Source of the DNA: an uncultured SAR86 cluster bacterium
GTDB lineage: Bacteria; Pseudomonadota; Gammaproteobacteria; Magnimaribacterales; AG-339-G14
Length of the DNA stretch: 54,559 nucleotides
NCBI GenBank assembly: GCA_902629465.1
Contig: CACOQX010000004.1
Location: 1 to 54,559, forward strand
Reading direction: 5' to 3'
The position numbers and the translations under genes were made by a program. Position 1 is the first letter of the stretch; each line of letters opens with the position of its first letter. Below the pieces are notes generated by a model. It had not been told where the DNA came from, did not search any database, and saw only the letters and a list, made by a program, of their open reading frames with translations. Shown here in pieces: positions 9,219-17,451 of the stretch.

Positions 9219-10769
9219 ATGACAAGGTCTTTGGGAGAGGCCTTATCGCTTCTAGCCGATAAGGGTGATATAAACCTAGAAAATTCAATTTCTCGTGGAA
9301 TTGAAAAAGAATCTCTTAGAGTCTCAAAAGACAACACCATTTCTAGTGCCGACCACCCTTCTTCATTAGGTTCGGCTCTTACAAATAAATACATTACAAC
9401 CGATTTTTCTGAAGCTCTATTGGAATTGATAACGCCTACTCATTCCTCTGTAGAAGATGTTCTTAAAAATTTAGATGAAATCTGTAAATTTGTTGTAGAA
9501 GAAACGCCCGAAACCATTTGGCCAAGTAGTATTCCTTGCAAGATAGAGAGCGAAGATTCCATTAGACTCGCTGATTATGGGACTTCAAATTCTGGCCTTC
9601 TTAAAACTTTATATAGGTCAGGATTGAGTTACAGGTATGGTTCGATGATGCAAACTGTCTCTGGCATTCATTATAATTTTTCTTTTAGTGATGCGTTGTT
9701 TGAAAGCTTAAGAGGCGAAGAAGATCTTCAGACTTTCAAAAATAAATCTTATTTGAGTTTAATAAGAAATTTTAGACGAAATGCCTGGATGATTTTATAT
9801 CTGTTTGGATCAAGCCCAGCAGTGCCGAAAACTTTTATCACTGACAGAAAAAATTTCCTTCAAGAATTAAATGAAGAAGATTTGTTTTTGGAATATGCGA
9901 CCTGCCTAAGAATGAGCGAATTAGGTTACATGTCAGAAGCTCAAGATAAACTTTATATTGCTTACAACAATATCGAAGAATATTTGGAAGATTTAAGGCA
10001 TGCTCTTACGAAAGAACACAAAAGATATGGTGAAGTTGGCGTCATCAAAGACGGCAAAAGAATACAAATAAATACTTCCATCATTCAGATTGAAAATGAA
10101 TATTACAGCTCTATTCGGCCTAAAAGAGTCTCGCCTCCTGGCGAGAGACCTATAAACGTTTTGCGAGACCAAGGTATAGACTACTTAGAAATAAGAGCAT
10201 TGGATAATAATTCTTTTTTGCCGACTGGCATTGACGAAGATACAGGCTATTTTTTAGAAGCCTATTTGATAGGCTGTTTTTTTGATGAGGACATAAAAGC
10301 TTCTCAATCAGAAATAAAAGAGCTTTTACTAAATTGGGAAAACGTTGTAAAAGATGGTAGAAATCCTGATCTCAAATTGCATAAAGACAACAAGAGAATC
10401 AGCATCAAAGACTGTGGTATGAAAGTTATTGATGCTCTTAGATCTGTTTTTAAGCAAATGCCCCAAGAAATGAATCTTTTTACAGAAAAGGTTTTTAATT
10501 CTTTAGATGTACAAGAAAAAAAATTGAATGATCCATCTTTAACGCCCTCTGGAAAAATAATTGAAGAATTGCAAAATAATAATAAGACTTGGGAAGAGCT
10601 GAATTTAGAATTGTCCAAAGAACATTCAAATTCACTTAAAAATATTGATACCGATTTAAATTACCTCTCAGAAGAAGCGGAAAGTTCCTTAAGGAAATTT
10701 AAAGAGTTAGAAAAGCTTGAAGAAGAAGATTTTGAGGTTTATCTTGATAAATTCGTAAACGATATATAA
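9219..10769 (+). CDS. gshA: Glutamate-cysteine ligase
   Basis: RGIEKESLRV, ITTDFSEALLELITP, SGIHYNFS, IENEYYSSIRPK, EIRALD. Confidence 0.95.
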   Translation: MTRSLGEALSLLADKGDINLENSISRGIEKESLRVSKDNTISSADHPSSLGSALTNKYITTDFSEALLELITPTHSSVEDVLKNLDEICKFVVEETPETIWPSSIPCKIESEDSIRLADYGTSNSGLLKTLYRSGLSYRYGSMMQTVSGIHYNFSFSDALFESLRGEEDLQTFKNKSYLSLIRNFRRNAWMILYLFGSSPAVPKTFITDRKNFLQELNEEDLFLEYATCLRMSELGYMSEAQDKLYIAYNNIEEYLEDLRHALTKEHKRYGEVGVIKDGKRIQINTSIIQIENEYYSSIRPKRVSPPGERPINVLRDQGIDYLEIRALDNNSFLPTGIDEDTGYFLEAYLIGCFFDEDIKASQSEIKELLLNWENVVKDGRNPDLKLHKDNKRISIKDCGMKVIDALRSVFKQMPQEMNLFTEKVFNSLDVQEKKLNDPSLTPSGKIIEELQNNNKTWEELNLELSKEHSNSLKNIDTDLNYLSEEAESSLRKFKELEKLEEEDFEVYLDKFVNDI

Positions 10770-10815
10770 GGTTTGTTTCTATTAAAAAAATAATTAATTT
10801 AGTTTTAGGAGAAAT

Positions 10816-11787
10816 ATGAAAGCTTATGTCTGTAGAGAATTTGGTCCCGTTGATTCACACAAGGTTGAAGAAATAGAAGATCCTAGAGCAGAACCTGGAA
10901 TGGTTGTGATAGATGTCAAAGCGGCTGGAGTGAGTTTTCCAGATGTTTTAATCGTGCAAGGAAAATATCAATTTCAACCGCCCTTTCCTTTCTCTCCAGG
11001 AGGTGAAATTGCTGGAGTTATTTCTGAAGTTGGCGAAGGTGTCGCTGATTGGAAAGAAGGAGACCGAGTGATTGCAATGGTAGGTAACGGCGGGATAGCA
11101 GAAAAAACTTCTGCCTTTGCAGCAACCTTAATGCCTTTACCCGAGTCGATGGATTTCAAAGATGGAGCTGCATTTCCTCTCAACTACGGAACTACTTATT
11201 ATGCTTTAAAGCAAAGAGGAGAATTAAAGAAAGGTGAGACGCTCTTGGTGACTGGAGCAGGAGGCGGGGTTGGAACTACTGCCATTGAAATCGGGAAAGC
11301 GATGGGCGCTAGAGTCATTGCTGCGGCTAGCAACCAAGAAAAATTAGATATTGCGAAAAGATTAGGTGCTGACGAACTGGTGAACTATGGCGATGGCGAA
11401 CTTAAAGAAAAAGTAAAAGAATTAACCGACGGTTTGGGTGCGGATGTGATTTATGATGCTGTAGGCGGTGATATCTTTCTGCAATGCATGAGATGTGTAA
11501 ATTGGAAAGGCAGAGTATTAGTTATTGGTTTCCCTGCAGGGATTCCAAAAGTTCCAACAAACCTAGCTCTTTTAAAGGGTTGTTCAATAGTAGGTGTTTT
11601 CTGGGGAAGTTTTACCGGCAGAGAACCTGAAGAAAACGCTCAAAACTTTGAAGAATTGTTTGCCTTGCACAGCGAAGGCAAATTAAAACCAGAAATTACC
11701 AAAAGCTATTCTTTAGATCAGGCTGTTGAGGCAATAAAATCTTTGGAAGATAGAACTGCTACTGGAAAGGTCGTAATTGAAATGTAA
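10816..11787 (+). CDS. NADPH:quinone oxidoreductase (MDR/zeta-crystallin family)
   Basis: PFSPGGE, TGAGGGVG, TGKVVI; AGGAGA RBS upstream. Confidence 0.9.
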   Translation: MKAYVCREFGPVDSHKVEEIEDPRAEPGMVVIDVKAAGVSFPDVLIVQGKYQFQPPFPFSPGGEIAGVISEVGEGVADWKEGDRVIAMVGNGGIAEKTSAFAATLMPLPESMDFKDGAAFPLNYGTTYYALKQRGELKKGETLLVTGAGGGVGTTAIEIGKAMGARVIAAASNQEKLDIAKRLGADELVNYGDGELKEKVKELTDGLGADVIYDAVGGDIFLQCMRCVNWKGRVLVIGFPAGIPKVPTNLALLKGCSIVGVFWGSFTGREPEENAQNFEELFALHSEGKLKPEITKSYSLDQAVEAIKSLEDRTATGKVVIEM

Positions 11788-11818
11788 AAAAGAGGAGCTT
11801 ATGAGCTCCTCTTTTTTT
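11786..11818. terminator. Bidirectional intrinsic terminator
   Basis: AAAAAAGAGGAGCT-TATG-AGCTCCTCTTTTTTT between convergent genes. Confidence 0.9.
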
Positions 11819-11827
11819 CTATTTAGT

Positions 11828-12244
11828 TTATTCTTTTGGCTCTGGTGCCATCCATGTAGGCACTAAAAGACTTATCAAGATAACAGTAAAAAATATTATC
11901 GCTATCGGGTCTGCAGGTATGAGTGTGAACTCAGGAAGTTCTGCGCCACCGCCAAAGAAATCCACTAGTTGCTGACTTCCTGGTGAAATTGTCTCCAACT
12001 GGGCTAAATTGTAAGCAGTCGTTTGTTGCAAATTGTTTAGTAAGCCCAAAACAAAAAGATTGAAGTAAACAACTGAAAGTGAAAACAAGGACGATAGAAC
12101 TTTCTGTACAACGTTAGCTCCCATGTCAGTGATTCTATTTACTCCCCTAAAAGCCATCCACAATAGAAACACAAAAGCTGCAAAGTAGATTGCGTTACTT
12201 ATTAATGAGCTATTGAATAAAGCTAGTATTTGATACTCTTCCAT
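11828..12244 (-). CDS. Unknown 3-TM membrane protein, paralog 4 (type B)
   Basis: MEEYQ start, W-M-A-F-R, LIPADPI...WMAPEPKE; AAGGAGG RBS. Confidence 0.85.
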   Translation of the reverse strand: MEEYQILALFNSSLISNAIYFAAFVFLLWMAFRGVNRITDMGANVVQKVLSSLFSLSVVYFNLFVLGLLNNLQQTTAYNLAQLETISPGSQQLVDFFGGGAELPEFTLIPADPIAIIFFTVILISLLVPTWMAPEPKE

Positions 12245-12262
12245 TTTTTCCTCCTTAAGAAA

Positions 12263-12685
12263 TTAAGAGTTATTATTTTTTGGTCCCCAAATTCCAATTA
12301 ATATAATTAGTAAAATTGATAACCACCAAATCATCACTATTGGGTCTCCAACTAATGATGCTTCTGGGTAACTTCCTTCACCGTTATCTGCTATGAAACT
12401 GTTCGCTATAGAAGATATTTCAACGCCAGCATTTTTTAGTTCCGATAAAGTGTAAGCAGCCCCTTGATTTAATACAGATAGGAAAGTTCCAGATCCATAA
12501 CCGAACCAGACAACTCCTATACCAAATATAGAGCCCAGAATTTTTGAGATCATATTTCCGCCCGACTCATTTATGTTTTTAGATACTCTAAAAGCTACCC
12601 AAACTAAAAAAGTCATGGCCAAGAAAAATAACATTACTCCTGCCGACTGAACCGCAAGAAGCATCCAAACTTGATATTCTTCCAT
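12263..12685 (-). CDS. Unknown 3-TM membrane protein, paralog 3 (type A); start revised to MEEYQVW
   Basis: AAGGAGGAAAAAATG at 12685. The longer track ORF runs through the terminator hairpin. Ends IWGPK. Confidence 0.85.
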   Translation of the reverse strand: MEEYQVWMLLAVQSAGVMLFFLAMTFLVWVAFRVSKNINESGGNMISKILGSIFGIGVVWFGYGSGTFLSVLNQGAAYTLSELKNAGVEISSIANSFIADNGEGSYPEASLVGDPIVMIWWLSILLIILIGIWGPKNNNS

Positions 12686-12707
12686 TTTTTCCTCCTTATT
12701 AAAGTTT

Positions 12708-12733
12708 AAAAAAAGGGAGGCTACTGCCTCCCT
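12708..12733 (-). terminator. Intrinsic terminator between paralog pairs
   Basis: AGGGAGGC-TACT-GCCTCCCT stem; the A-tract at 12708-12714 gives a U-tail on the minus strand. Confidence 0.8.
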
Positions 12734-12742
12734 CATGATTGT

Positions 12743-13162
12743 TTATTCTTTAGGGCCTGGTGCGGTCCACATGCCGCCAATTAGACCGACTAAAATTGCT
12801 AAGATGAATACTATTCCAATAGGATCAGCAGGTATTAAACCTGGAGATATATATTGAGTAGCTCCTGTTACATCTACGAAATTTTGTAAACTTCCGTTCA
12901 ATTCTTCTCCTGACTCAGAAAGAGATAAGGCCCAATTATTAAGCAATGAAGCGATAAAAGAATAAGTACCAGATACAAAAGAAACTACACACAGTGAAAT
13001 GACTGTATGCAAAACTTTTCCAAAAGTATTTACTCCATAAATATGTGCATTAGATACGCCTCTAAACATCATCCACAAGAGGATGAAGTATGCAATTAAA
13101 AATAAGCCGCTAAGTTGCATTAAACCTATAAAACTTTGATTTATAAATGCTATTTGTTCCAT
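12743..13162 (-). CDS. Unknown 3-TM membrane protein, paralog 2 (type B)
   Basis: W-M-M-F-R-G-V, NTFGK, LIPADPI...WTAPGPKE; AGGAGA RBS. Confidence 0.85.
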   Translation of the reverse strand: MEQIAFINQSFIGLMQLSGLFLIAYFILLWMMFRGVSNAHIYGVNTFGKVLHTVISLCVVSFVSGTYSFIASLLNNWALSLSESGEELNGSLQNFVDVTGATQYISPGLIPADPIGIVFILAILVGLIGGMWTAPGPKE

Positions 13163-13186
13163 GATTTTTCTCCTAATTAATAGATA

Positions 13187-13582
13187 TTATTTTTTTGGCA
13201 GCCAAATGTTACCTAAAATTATAATTGCTACTATTGCTAATAAAACCATAGCTCCAGTAGTTGGTGTGTTTGTCGGAACGGTTGTGCCAACAAAGTCGAT
13301 AAAACCTTGTGCTGTTTCAGACTTATCTTCCAAAGCATCTAAACTTCTTGCAGTAACGATCCAGTTTGTTACAGCATTTGTCCATTGCATGAAAGTACCT
13401 CCTAGTACAGCTAATCCAAAAGCAGACGAAACCAGTTTTCCAAAAAGGTTTGTTTCATCAGAAGCTCTGGTAGCGGCAGCTACTCTGATCGCAAGCCAAA
13501 TTAAAAGAACTGTGGCTACAAAGTTTAAACCGTCAGCTATCCTGTTAGAACTCCATAAAGTCCATATTTGATATTCTTCCAT
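13187..13582 (-). CDS. Unknown 3-TM membrane protein, paralog 1 (type A); start revised to MEEYQIW
   Basis: GGGAGAAAAAATG at 13582; W-L-A-I-R-V, NLFGK, ends IWLPKK. Confidence 0.85.
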   Translation of the reverse strand: MEEYQIWTLWSSNRIADGLNFVATVLLIWLAIRVAAATRASDETNLFGKLVSSAFGLAVLGGTFMQWTNAVTNWIVTARSLDALEDKSETAQGFIDFVGTTVPTNTPTTGAMVLLAIVAIIILGNIWLPKK

Positions 13583-13608
13583 TTTTTCTCCCAAAAAAAT
13601 TTATTATA

Positions 13609-13623
13609 TGAGAATAATTCTCA
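13609..13623. promoter_or_regulatory. Fur-box-like 7-1-7 operator
   Basis: Perfect palindrome TGAGAAT-A-ATTCTCA 26 bp upstream of paralog 1, adjoining a minus-strand TATAAT (13603-13608). Confidence 0.65.
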
Positions 13624-13671
13624 ATAAGAACTATATCTAATTTTTTTTTATTTTGAAATGAAAATGTTGTG

Positions 13672-14310
13672 TTAGTTAAAGCTTACGATACTTTCTAAAA
13701 CTTGTGCCATCTTTTCAGGGGTATGCGGCGACTTAAAAAAGCCAAAATAGTTTCCATTAGGATCTATTACAGCAAGATTCATACTATGGTCCATATCATA
13801 ATTGGAATTATCAGAACCTACTACTGGAACGAAAGGTAGGGTCAAATCTGTAGCCAATTTATAAATAACTTCGATGTTACCCGTAATTCCTGTGAAATTG
13901 GGATTAAAGGCTTCTGCATATTCTTGCATTTTTTCTGGAGAGTCACGTTCTGGATCAACCGATATCATTCTGAAGTTTACTTTAGAAGATACTTCCTCTG
14001 AAAGATTACTATCAGCCATTGCCATTTTCTTCATTGTCATTGGACACATGTCTGGGCAAGATGCAAAACCAAGAAATAATACATCCCATGCTCCTTTGAG
14101 ATCGTTATTAGAAAACTTATTGCTCCCCTCGATAAGCTCAAAACTGTTTATTTGTCTTGTACGAACAAGTTTGTAAAAACCTATTTGTTTGTATTCAGCT
14201 GCAGTCAATTCTTTTGGTGATACCGTGGTGTAAACAAAAAGTCCTGCAACCATAGAAACAAATAGCAAGCATGAAGCAACGGTTATTCTTATGGATTTGT
14301 TGTTACTCAT
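13672..14310 (-). CDS. SCO1/SenC copper chaperone
   Basis: GFASCPDMCP (CxxxC), ISVDPERD, MDHS. Confidence 0.92.
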   Translation of the reverse strand: MSNNKSIRITVASCLLFVSMVAGLFVYTTVSPKELTAAEYKQIGFYKLVRTRQINSFELIEGSNKFSNNDLKGAWDVLFLGFASCPDMCPMTMKKMAMADSNLSEEVSSKVNFRMISVDPERDSPEKMQEYAEAFNPNFTGITGNIEVIYKLATDLTLPFVPVVGSDNSNYDMDHSMNLAVIDPNGNYFGFFKSPHTPEKMAQVLESIVSFN

Positions 14311-15206
14311 AATTGAATTGGAATCAATTTATCAAGAGCCATGCAGATAAACAATACTGTCAAAAAGACTATAGAGTAGAGAAATAATGGTAAAGCGAGT
14401 TTGTTGTTTTTATCAAAAATTAAGGCGATTGAAAAACCTATGAAAATTGCATTTAAAATAATTGCGCTAAAAAAGTAAAACCCACCCAAATAACCCGTTG
14501 CAAAAGGAAATAGAGAAGAAACAGCTAATAAAAATGAGTAGAGAGCTATTTGGATTTTTGTATACTCTGTACCTTTGACAACCGGCATCATTGGTATTTT
14601 TGCCGCCACGTAATCTTCTTTCCTGTTAATAGATAAAGCCCAAAAATGAGGGGGCGTCCAAATGAAGATTATTAAAACCATCAGCAAAGGTAAAGCATCT
14701 ATGGAATTAGTAATGGCTGTCCAGCCAAGAAGCGGCGGCATAGCTCCGGCAATACCCCCAATCACAATATTTTGAGTGCCGGCAAACTTAAGTATTTTTG
14801 TGTAAAGAAAGGAATAGAAAGCCCAAGTAAAAAGAGTTAATAAAAGGGTTAATAGATTTATAAAGAACAGCAAGATAAATGATCCAAAAATTAGTAGAGC
14901 TGCTGCAAATATCTTTGCATTTGTTACAGAGATTTCTCCTTTTACTATAGGTCTGTTTTTAGTCCTTGCCATCTTGCTGTCAACTTCGACATCAAGAATT
15001 TGATTGATAACGGCGCTTGATGAGGCAATTAATCCTATGCCCACTAATCCGAATACAACTTTCATCAAATTTCCTGAAAACCCATCGGCTAAAAACATTG
15101 CTGTAGCTGAAGTAAGGACAAGTAAATAGATAATTGATGGCTTTGTAAGCTTAAGATAGCCTGATAAAGGAAATCTTTGGGGTTGAGTAATAACTTCAGT
15201 ATTCAC
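14307..15206 (-). CDS. cyoE: Protoheme IX farnesyltransferase (heme O synthase)
   Basis: LTKP, D.KMARTKNRP, QNIVIGG.AGAMPPLLGW, WTPPHFWAL. Confidence 0.95.
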   Translation of the reverse strand: MNTEVITQPQRFPLSGYLKLTKPSIIYLLVLTSATAMFLADGFSGNLMKVVFGLVGIGLIASSSAVINQILDVEVDSKMARTKNRPIVKGEISVTNAKIFAAALLIFGSFILLFFINLLTLLLTLFTWAFYSFLYTKILKFAGTQNIVIGGIAGAMPPLLGWTAITNSIDALPLLMVLIIFIWTPPHFWALSINRKEDYVAAKIPMMPVVKGTEYTKIQIALYSFLLAVSSLFPFATGYLGGFYFFSAIILNAIFIGFSIALIFDKNNKLALPLFLYSIVFLTVLFICMALDKLIPIQL

Positions 15207-16191
15207 GGGACCTTAATCTAGCATAAGATAATCCTAATAATAGGAAAAGAGCACCGAGATTATGAGCTATTGCAACATAAAGTGGAAGTCTATAAATAAT
15301 GTTTGATACACCTAATGCAAGTTGAAAAAAAAGCAAGCCCCCTATAAGACCTGAAATAAAATAATTTTTTTCCTTTGCAAACAAGAAAGCTAAAAACAAA
15401 AAGTACAAAGTCACAATTAGAGCGCCAAATCTATGCACAAGATGGATAGCGACCCTTGATTGATGATCTAATTGGCCGCCTAAATAATCAGGCCCAATTC
15501 TTTGAGCAAAGTTTAGACCCTTCACATAATCAGCATCTGGGAGAATTTGTCCCTTGCATAGCGGGAAATCAGAGCAAGCTAAAGCAGCATAATTTGAACT
15601 GAGCCAAACTCCCATAATGATTTGTGCAATCAGAATTGGAAAAGCGACATTAAGAACTTTTAGAGTATTTTTAGAAACTGAAATATAATTTACTTTTTCT
15701 AAGTTAATTTCTTTTAACTTTAAATATGTCAGAAAAATTAGAGTTGTAGTAGCAAATCCACCAAGTAGATGCGCAGTAACAACCTGAGGCCAAAGTTTCA
15801 AACTAACAGTAAAATAACCAAGCAATGATTGGAATAAGACCAAGGCAGTCATAGTTGCGGTAATTTTTACGATAAAGGAGTTTCTCGGTTTAGAAAAAAC
15901 TGCATATAGAAATAGCCCAATAATAAGTAAGCCTAGCGACCCAGCAAAATACCTATGAACTACTTCAGGAACTGCTTTAGCTATTTCAAACTTTCTCTCA
16001 GGGTAAAGTTCGTTTGCCAACGAAATTTCAGATTCTGACATTGGCCAGATTGCAAAACCATAACAACCAGGCCAGTCGGGGCAACCTAATCCTGCATCTA
16101 CAAGTCTTGTCCAAGCGCCTAACCCCACTACAGTGAAAGCTAGAAAGATTCCTAGCAAAGCAATCAACTGAATTTTCTTTAAATTACCCAA
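15196..16191 (-). CDS. ctaA: Heme A synthase (COX15/CtaA)
   Basis: GAWTRLVDAGLGCPDWPGC, EVVHR, HLLGG, HR, AHN. Confidence 0.93.
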   Translation of the reverse strand: MGNLKKIQLIALLGIFLAFTVVGLGAWTRLVDAGLGCPDWPGCYGFAIWPMSESEISLANELYPERKFEIAKAVPEVVHRYFAGSLGLLIIGLFLYAVFSKPRNSFIVKITATMTALVLFQSLLGYFTVSLKLWPQVVTAHLLGGFATTTLIFLTYLKLKEINLEKVNYISVSKNTLKVLNVAFPILIAQIIMGVWLSSNYAALACSDFPLCKGQILPDADYVKGLNFAQRIGPDYLGGQLDHQSRVAIHLVHRFGALIVTLYFLFLAFLFAKEKNYFISGLIGGLLFFQLALGVSNIIYRLPLYVAIAHNLGALFLLLGLSYARLRSREY

Positions 16192-16765
16192 TTTTTGATG
16201 CCCTTAACAGTTTTTTTATGTCAGATAAGATTTTTTTAGGATCAATATCCCCTTGATATGACAAAATGATATTCCCGAGAGGATCTGCTAAAAGAAATCC
16301 CGGTTGAATGAAAGGGTTTACACCTGCTTCAGTCATTTTTTTTCTTAATAATTTTAAATTTTTAGCCGATATTGCTGTTAAATTTGTTTCATTCTGAAAA
16401 AGCTTTTTTACTTTTTCCTGTGTCTTGAAAGAGGCTACATAAAAACGCTTAACTCTATCTTTTTCCCTTCCAATCGCAGTATTAATTTGCCTAGAAAAAT
16501 AAAAAGCTTCTAAGCAATCTTCGTTACATCGATCGTCTAAAAAATGAATAATCATCCATTTCCTCTCCATTGAGTCGATATTAAGAGGTTGATAGTTCAG
16601 TTCAAGTTCTAGACTTCCTAAGTCAACTGGCGGATCTATCATAGTGCCATAATTAATGGTTGCTTTAGGACCTAGGCCAGCGTAATACCAAAAAGTAGAC
16701 AAGGAAATTACCAAGAAAGGAGTTCCAAAAATTATCAAAGCTATAAGAAAGCCTTTGTTTTTCAT
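16184..16765 (-). CDS. Membrane-anchored thioredoxin/SCO-like protein of cox clusters; start revised to MKNKG
   Basis: N-terminal TM, NYG, CxxxC (CNEDC), DPLGN, DIKKLLRAS; position matches gammaproteobacterial cox clusters. Confidence 0.75.
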   Translation of the reverse strand: MKNKGFLIALIIFGTPFLVISLSTFWYYAGLGPKATINYGTMIDPPVDLGSLELELNYQPLNIDSMERKWMIIHFLDDRCNEDCLEAFYFSRQINTAIGREKDRVKRFYVASFKTQEKVKKLFQNETNLTAISAKNLKLLRKKMTEAGVNPFIQPGFLLADPLGNIILSYQGDIDPKKILSDIKKLLRASKIG

Positions 16766-17451
16766 ATTGCTTTCTTCCTGAATAGATAAAAGCCGCCAAA
16801 TAAAACAACCAAAGCTAGAGCAAACCACTGAATAGCATATCCGAAATGCCTAGTAGATTTTAATGATGTTGGTTGCCAGATAGGCTCAAAACTTAAATTA
16901 GATAAAGCCGATAATTCAAAAACGTAAGGCAATAATTTTTTACCGCTTAATTCTTCTATTAGATCTTTGTCTAGTCCTTGAATTATAAAATTTTCTCCAA
17001 ACTTTTTAGCTTGGTCTTCAAGTACAAAATCCTTGGAAAAAGGTCTAATCATTCCATCTAGTTTTAAATTTTTTTTTGGCAAAGAAAGTTTTGGAAGCGA
17101 ATCTCTTTCTACAGATTCAACCCAGCCTCTTGAAACTAGAATTTTTTCTTTAGTTGCTAGAGTAAACGGGTTGAAAACTACGTAGCCAGCCTTACCATTA
17201 AAAGTTTTATTATCCACAAAAAAAGTTTTTTTACCGAAAACACCCGAAATTTGTATATTCCTATAATATAAATTTTGATTCAGCTCTCCTGGATTTGTCT
17301 CAACTGGAAAAGACTGTCTTTCTGAAAAGGCATTTTCTAATGCTTTTTTGGCATAGCCTCTGTCAATTTGCCATACGCCAAGGGATAATGCTCCGAAAAA
17401 AACGAGAACAAAAATCGTAACAATCAAATATTTAGAAAAATCCATAGCCAA
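16762..17451 (-). CDS. SURF1 family cytochrome oxidase assembly protein (likely ATG start at 17445)
   Basis: LGVWQIDR, LVSRGWV, HFGYAIQWF. Confidence 0.9.
   Translation of the reverse strand: MAMDFSKYLIVTIFVLVFFGALSLGVWQIDRGYAKKALENAFSERQSFPVETNPGELNQNLYYRNIQISGVFGKKTFFVDNKTFNGKAGYVVFNPFTLATKEKILVSRGWVESVERDSLPKLSLPKKNLKLDGMIRPFSKDFVLEDQAKKFGENFIIQGLDKDLIEELSGKKLLPYVFELSALSNLSFEPIWQPTSLKSTRHFGYAIQWFALALVVLFGGFYLFRKKAI

Follow-up and report, generated by a model that had tools for sequence, protein, structure and literature searches.

A tandem array of genes for undescribed small membrane proteins under a predicted Fur operator in an uncultured marine gammaproteobacterium

What are four related genes for small membrane proteins, lying in tandem directly behind a cytochrome c oxidase cluster, doing in the genome of an uncultured marine bacterium? 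The genes occupy positions 11828 to 13582 of the 54,559-nucleotide stretch of contig CACOQX010000004.1 that was analysed as a whole, here called the window, which belongs to an assembly of 944 kb (G000) representing a genome about 60% complete. An earlier note, made from the sequence alone, had picked them out as a selected, abundant and diversified membrane complex, perhaps a channel, a transporter or a respiratory accessory. The answer that we regard as probable is that the array arose when a gene of an undescribed family, confined to one order and coding for small inner-membrane proteins, expanded in tandem, and that it constitutes a Fur-repressed transcription unit for iron starvation. The four genes, each defined by its open reading frame (ORF) and translation, are as follows.

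13187–13582, minus strand: paralog A, 131 aa, first in the array
12743–13162, minus strand: paralog B, 139 aa
12263–12685, minus strand: paralog C, 140 aa
11828–12244, minus strand: paralog D, 138 aa, last in the array

The description of these genes as four co-directional paralogous ORFs of 131–140 aa is borne out by pairwise BLASTP, in which five of the six pairs matched with E-values from 1e-6 to 1e-18 (at a nominal database size of 1e6); the A–B pair gave no direct match and is linked via C and D alone. Alignment of A–D yields 15 invariant columns, among them the motifs W..R, N...K and terminal W.PK that the note had recognised. A strong Shine–Dalgarno site likewise stands before all four: the string AAGGAGGAAAAAATGGAAGA.TATCAA is common to the sequences preceding C and D, GGAG-type ribosome-binding sites precede A and B, and in the case of C, where a longer ORF extends to 12736, an AAGGAGG site serves the MEEYQ start. 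A survey of 876 crudely called genes over the whole assembly found a GGAG-or-better site in 16% of them when the longest-ORF start was used and in 22% with the best alternative start, which agrees with the uneven use of such sites noted before and makes their presence at four of four array genes unusual. This genome seems to use Shine–Dalgarno sites selectively, perhaps as a mark of genes with high translation.

All 14 ortholog pairs drawn from related genomes gave ratios of nonsynonymous to synonymous substitution (dN/dS) of 0.02–0.30, rather than the value near 1 that the note had named as counter-evidence: 0.02–0.27 for A (three orthologs), 0.02–0.21 for B (six), 0.09–0.30 for C (four) and 0.03 for D (one). 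Four marine RNA libraries, drawn from as many studies and chosen using the array, each yielded contigs that cover parts of it; such contigs record presence in RNA libraries, which does not prove transcription, DNA being a possible source, and which does not permit any ranking of expression. One 828-nt contig spans A and B, the stretch 12775–13580 is covered by a contig, and B is overlaid by contigs from runs X2, X3 and X5. Over C, run X1 provides contigs at 12253–12401 (two differences) and 12450–12692 (no differences), and the junction of D and C is bridged by a contig. The pieces over SCO and ctaB, within the region 10000–16000, are short and of 90–95% identity; no contig from the four runs covers 10000–12119, and uncovered stretches carry no evidential weight. 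A–D are real homologous genes under purifying selection.

The best clue to their function, absent from the earlier note, is a conserved operator of iron-regulon type in front of A.

13609–13623, no strand assigned: Fur-box-like palindrome TGAGAATnATTCTCA, 15 bp, 26 nt 5' of the ATG of A
13630–13657, minus strand: sigma-70-like promoter TTCAAA, 16 nt, TATAGT (consensus scan, 9 of 12 matches; a consensus match only)

The palindrome begins 6 nt past the -10-like hexamer, and an exact match to TGAGAATnATTCTCA occurs nowhere else in the 944-kb assembly. When 13 orthologous spacers are aligned, it stands out as a conserved block in sequence that has otherwise diverged, and the -10-like ATATAG block is also kept among orthologous upstream regions; in relatives the palindrome lies 22–35 nt 5' of the first gene of the array, whatever paralog type leads. 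Its strength was gauged with a matrix trained on 13 sites that, in four genomes, precede genes for TonB-dependent receptors or Fe(III)-type ABC transporters; the arrays were left out of the training to avoid circularity. By this matrix the array palindrome scores 19.9 bits, against a 99th percentile of 8.8 bits for 888 control upstream regions. The order has four bacterial families, here f1 (that of the window), f2 (its sister family), f3 and f4; operators of 11–21 bits were found at 11 of 12 f1 arrays and in two of four f2 genomes.

Five sites in the window's genome reach at least 19 bits, and all are intergenic. Three of them are training sites (two at TonB receptors, one at an FbpABC-like operon). 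The other two are the array itself and a site outside the training set that separates the gene for a DUF6607 protein from that for a siderophore-interacting protein. In three near-complete relatives a degenerate form of the operator pattern occurs 8–11 times per strand, as against 2–3 times for the reversed control, and six of the eight zero-mismatch sites fall at promoters of TonB receptors or iron substrate-binding proteins (Fe-SBP), one at an array and one elsewhere. Fur itself is encoded in the window's genome, at G000:C37:1812-2186 (PF01475, E 1.3e-42). According to PMC4506495 the 19-bp Fur box is 5'-GATAATGATAATCATTATC-3' with the core GATAAT-C-ATTATC, from which the core of the operator seen here differs by one symmetric substitution. 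At the TonB-receptor and Fe-SBP genes of the same genomes, GAGAAT and GATAAT half-sites are mixed inside single sites, so that one regulator most simply reads both. Because the palindrome matches the operator of TonB-receptor, Fe(III)-type ABC and siderophore-interacting protein genes, membership of the Fur regulon, which answers to iron starvation, is the most likely status of the array in f1 and f2.

Several observations attach to these sites. One of the top-scoring Fur-box-like sites, TGATAACGATTATCA, lies in G000:C18:1071-3281 (L140) between divergent genes, one for the DUF6607 protein and the other for the siderophore-interacting protein, of 368 aa (SIP/FAD_binding_9). The latter was considered as a co-occurring partner of the array and was dropped, being present in G000 only among five genomes. 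A very divergent extra paralog occurs at a separate locus in L033 (7205-7633), L034 (7315-7731), G005, G007 and G016, all of the same genus; it adjoins alpha/beta-hydrolase and metallo-beta-lactamase genes and is without the palindrome. The window's genome, at 60% completeness, yielded no copy of it. Three of the four f4 members (L029, L030 and L031) show by eye an upstream stretch containing CTACCCT and no palindrome, and this stretch may be a different control element.

The proteins that this operator would control belong, by every search made, to no described family. None of the four exceeds a curated cut-off in Pfam or NCBIfam, and PHROGs and PADLOC also returned nothing for any of them. 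A Pfam scan of 110 family members, the set used below for charge and residue statistics as well, found no recurrent family; the most frequent rows were Colicin_V (6 of 110, best E 0.0013) and T4SS_pilin (5 of 110, best E 0.00049), which reach 12.6–17.3 bits on the window's own proteins against cut-offs of 26.6–29.3. The best row of a profile search of the PDB, a photosystem I fragment at E 0.0061, was judged chance helix similarity, and the ESM Atlas offered unnamed clusters only, with no usable named match. The family is therefore as unassignable as the note had found it to be. Foldseek with the models of A and D described below returned no match at E<=0.001 either in the PDB or in BFVD; the best hit of an exhaustive VIA-align search was a designed helical hairpin (Z 8.7 over 77 residues), in a range common for helical models. 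Single-protein searches of genome contigs and of viral contigs found no close relative. Among the 110 members there is no match at E<=1 to PF01618 (MotA/ExbB/TolQ), and since all five genomes that were checked have three to four canonical PF01618 genes, the family is no substitute for ExbB/TolQ. Novelty attaches to the proteins as a family and to what they do; as a regulatory circuit, the unit is ordinary.

When 1.84 billion representative proteins were searched with the family profile, 379 clusters were recovered at E<=0.001, the best 150 of which measure 56–203 aa, with 95 of the 150 at 120–150 aa. Among 104 genomes of the order with completeness of at least 85%, 78 have a match: 25 of 25 in f1 (one to four copies each), 37 of 48 in f3, 7 of 15 in f2 and 8 of 15 in f4. 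No match was found in any of 297 genomes sampled across the class outside the order, and on this sampling the family is restricted to one order of small-genome marine bacteria. The window's genome, as assembled, has these four copies only. According to a 50-member tree the split into paralog types is old, and the subsets retained differ among close relatives, which may have A+B, C+D, C alone, or A+B with a fifth type (E); an obligate four-subunit complex is therefore unlikely. Of the note's interpretation, the analysis supports true, homologous genes that are under selection, have good translation signals, occur in RNA libraries and fall into no described family; a single complex of the four products is conjectural. 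Prediction of an A+B complex (alignments of 110–112 rows, without controls) gave scores of 0.06 and 0.02 against a mark of 0.32, and is uninformative on binding.

AlphaFold2 models of A (from a 110-row alignment) and D (from a 41-row alignment) are alike and confident, with a mean predicted local distance difference test (pLDDT) of 93.3 and 94.3 respectively and a predicted template modelling score (pTM) of 0.82 in both. Each has four helices, at 3–40, 46–82, 89–98 and 109–127 in A and at 3–41, 45–81, 88–97 and 113–131 in D, three of them of membrane-spanning length; the layout is a long helical hairpin, then a short helix inside a loop of about 40 residues, then the third long helix. The three transmembrane helices of the note are upheld by these models, and the family is predicted with high confidence to consist of three-helix membrane proteins. 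A Kyte–Doolittle window above 1.5 picks out helices 1 and 3 in each of A–D and helix 2 in B and D only. Mean net charge over the 110 members is -1.9 at the N-terminus, +1.5 in loop 1, -3.0 in loop 2 and +1.1 at the C-terminus, a pattern which fits an inner-membrane topology in which the N-terminus and the acidic loop 2, of roughly 40 residues, face outward and both the basic loop 1 and the C-terminus face inward. Residues that hardly vary (W29, R33, K49, S/T53 and W127 in the numbering of A) sit at predicted helix ends bordering loop 1 and the C-terminus, and are thus probably at the inner face of the membrane. E3 is conserved in 94 of the 110 members, and the predicted periplasmic loop is the variable region of the family. 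Dual-topology pairs, for which small multidrug or fluoride channels offer the analogy, were rejected, the sign of the charge pattern being the same in all four paralogs and in the family average.

Two hairpins suggest how the array might be transcribed.

12713–12734, minus strand: G+C-rich hairpin with T-run, separating B from C (9 base pairs in the terminator scan, including 6 G–C)
11786–11817, no strand assigned: hairpin with A-run and T-run between D and the convergent gene for a zinc-dependent alcohol dehydrogenase (Zn-ADH) (scan: plus strand, 14 pairs)

The stem GGGAGGC...GCCTCCC recurs 3' of the B-type gene in five relatives (L006, L007, L010, L014 and L015), with differing loops, and no RNA-library contig bridges the hairpin between B and C. 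This hairpin, within the stretch 12703–12742, has the appearance of an element kept by selection, whether as an internal terminator, as an attenuator or to stabilise RNA, and would split the array into two expression classes. The second hairpin is followed by a T-run on the minus strand too, and is predicted to be common to D and Zn-ADH and to mark the end of the array transcript. On the explanation that we favour, iron-loaded Fur would bind the palindrome and occlude the promoter; iron starvation would then release strong transcription of A and B, mostly ending at 12713–12734, while a fraction of transcripts would pass this internal hairpin into C and D and run up to 11786–11817, and the strong ribosome-binding sites would ensure a high yield of protein. 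With less support, the proteins would act at the inner membrane or in the periplasm in iron acquisition or in adaptation to iron stress, and the paralogs would serve as isoforms, alternative or additive, set apart by divergence of the variable periplasmic loop.

A more specific role can be imagined. FecCD-type permeases occur in 8 of the 104 order genomes, and Fur-box TonB-dependent receptors are found in the four genomes examined despite this scarcity, so that the route by which iron is unloaded across the inner membrane is not obvious. The scarcity of FecCD leaves room for an unconventional inner-membrane step and is not evidence for one. The family might be the step that TonB-dependent iron uptake otherwise lacks at the inner membrane or in the periplasm: starvation-induced homo- or hetero-oligomers, with acidic periplasmic caps that capture or release the ferric iron brought in by TonB-dependent receptors, would hand it to the FbpABC-like transporter or conduct it themselves, with the paralogs tuned to different iron sources. 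We consider this version unlikely, if worth stating.

A number of results weigh against placing the family in iron metabolism. The operator is found at none of 13 family members of f3 and f4, at neither of two genes of the divergent fifth paralog type, and is missing from two of the four f2 genomes and one of the 12 f1 arrays; either iron control is lineage-specific or a matrix trained on f1 and f2 misses other forms, given the operator-negative f3 and f4. The related genomes are kin, and so the counts of operator sites are not independent. Twenty-six of the 104 order genomes are without a match, which marks the family as dispensable. The proteins have no recognisable metal-binding motif, and His and Cys make up 0.27% and 0.54% of residues over the 110 members. 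Helix 2 of A and C is weakly hydrophobic by Kyte–Doolittle. In a comparison of 21 loci, with the two nearest genes per side, there is no conserved partner gene, and no conserved neighbour links the family to a specific iron pathway.

The regulatory evidence would serve equally well for abundant small proteins under Fur control that have no role in uptake and, during iron scarcity, lend stability to the inner membrane and its complexes or reshape them, much like other small membrane proteins that starvation induces. The conserved aromatic and basic residues at the membrane interface are typical of lipid-headgroup contacts and are not a polar pore lining; the near absence of His and Cys and of any metal motif, the variable copy number and the genomes without a match would all suit a dispensable modulator. 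The acidic periplasmic surfaces, the conservation of E3 and the conserved short periplasmic helix suggest instead a specific interaction in the periplasm, and we give a purely structural function of this kind a small though not negligible chance. A more radical alternative is that the palindrome serves a regulator other than Fur, or is merely a conserved promoter element, and that the array has nothing to do with iron. The GAGAAT half-site does depart at one position from the consensus published in PMC4506495, and the motif is A+T-rich in an A+T-rich genome. What makes this improbable is that both half-sites are mixed within single sites at iron genes, that a matrix free of array sequences ranks the arrays above 99% of control upstream regions, and that the top five sites of the genome are all intergenic, the four besides the array being at iron-uptake genes.

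The position of the array invites a third reading, in which the proteins assist the aa3-type cytochrome c oxidase, either as accessory subunits or in its assembly, and are co-expressed with the cox, ctaA, ctaB and SCO genes. Pfam confirms the cluster that the note placed directly upstream (COX2, COX1, CtaG, COX3, SURF1, CtaA, CtaB and SCO1) and shows it to be complete; the array follows SCO1 in the same direction after a spacer of 89 nt, and the terminator scan found no terminator-like site between SCO and A, so read-through is possible. The placement of the array between SCO/ctaB and Zn-ADH holds within f1, recurring in another genus of that family (L035). CyoD/COX4_pro, subunit IV of heme-copper oxidases, has a three-helix layout, and the array products resemble it as small three-helix membrane proteins beside oxidase genes; they differ from it in that none of the 110 members matches oxidase subunit IV in Pfam at E<=1, and in that the cox linkage is seen in f1 only. 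Arrays of f2 adjoin genes for glutathione S-transferase (GST), Zn-ADH and PhoD-like proteins, with no cox gene among the two nearest per side, and the corresponding neighbours vary in f3 and f4. Adjacency to cox/SCO is limited to one bacterial family, and a respiratory role is for this reason not supported. Between SCO and A lie a promoter-like site of the array's own and the operator common to iron-uptake genes, the best oxidase subunit in Foldseek reached no better than E 2.5, and 26 of the 104 order genomes, counted irrespective of their cox content, have no match; the respiratory accessory of the earlier note is thus highly improbable. Scarcely credible, finally, is a holin-like, bacteriocin-immunity or other conflict-related function. 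Immunity genes typically form tandem arrays that vary in copy number and encode small, diverged proteins of several helices, and a three-helix, N-out/C-in layout is that of class I holins; the array shares with them copy numbers and subsets that vary among close relatives and a variable outward-facing loop, and sub-threshold Pfam rows name a putative holin family for 2 of the 110 members (best E 0.032) and a colicin N-terminal domain for 1 of the 110. Set against this are the empty PHROGs and PADLOC searches, the lack of a BFVD match at E<=0.001 and of close relatives on viral contigs, neighbours that are housekeeping genes with no phage, toxin or secretion genes among them, strong purifying selection, a fixed chromosomal position across genera, and the predicted co-regulation with iron uptake.

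Some further features of the surroundings may be recorded. Between SURF1 and CtaA in the cox cluster, a 214-aa ORF at 16184-16828 (minus strand) has no Pfam match at E<=1e-4. Two groups of neighbours of about 245 aa accompany family members elsewhere, one group in f2 and one in f3: the first comprises L017:7584-8327, L018:6307-7050 and L019:6554-7294, and the second L021:7975-8709, L022:6312-7049 and L024:6279-7010. Both have signal-peptide-like N-termini and no Pfam match, and there is no mutual BLAST match between the groups at E<=0.001.

Comparison with known systems sets the predicted unit beside the Fur-repressed iron operons of gammaproteobacteria, which it resembles in having a palindromic operator that overlaps the promoter, with a Fur gene present, and in sharing its operator type with TonB-receptor, FbpABC-like and siderophore-interacting protein genes of the same genome. 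It differs from them in that the array products match no known iron-uptake component, and from the Fur box published in PMC4506495 in a half-site GAGAAT in place of GATAAT.

Small membrane proteins of the DUF3325 family (PF11804) occur in iron-uptake clusters beside PepSY-type membrane proteins, and the array products are like them as small multi-helix inner-membrane proteins tied to iron uptake, genomically in the one case and by predicted regulation in the other. As a remote relative DUF3325 was rejected: none of the 110 members matches it in Pfam, and hhalign returned a probability of 0.2% with E 0.28. A DUF3325 protein was found in one of 151 genomes, the one used for hhalign. PsiE, the phosphate-starvation-inducible protein E of the Pho regulon, is a four-helix protein; the likeness lies in helical inner-membrane proteins of about 135 aa under a nutrient-starvation regulon (here predicted), and the difference in Fur rather than Pho, three helices rather than four, and no sequence match. 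A genuine PsiE gene lies two genes away from a family member in L022. For both models the best Foldseek rows were the type VII ABC transporter proteins LolC and FtsX, which were not significant (E 0.17–0.94, TM-score to the query 0.31–0.36, root-mean-square deviation 8.6–10.5 Å). The array products recall the transmembrane part of these proteins in their long paired helices reaching beyond the membrane; LolC and FtsX, unlike them, have four helices and a large periplasmic domain.

Metatranscriptomes from iron-addition experiments have been reported in PMC11069385 to contain differentially expressed genes 'primarily of unknown function', which may bear on the prediction made here. If the genomes are those of an abundant uncultured clade of the surface ocean, as their size, their base composition and an order of four families suggest, then the array would represent a well-translated, iron-regulated and lineage-specific membrane protein family in organisms that shape the recycling of scarce iron.

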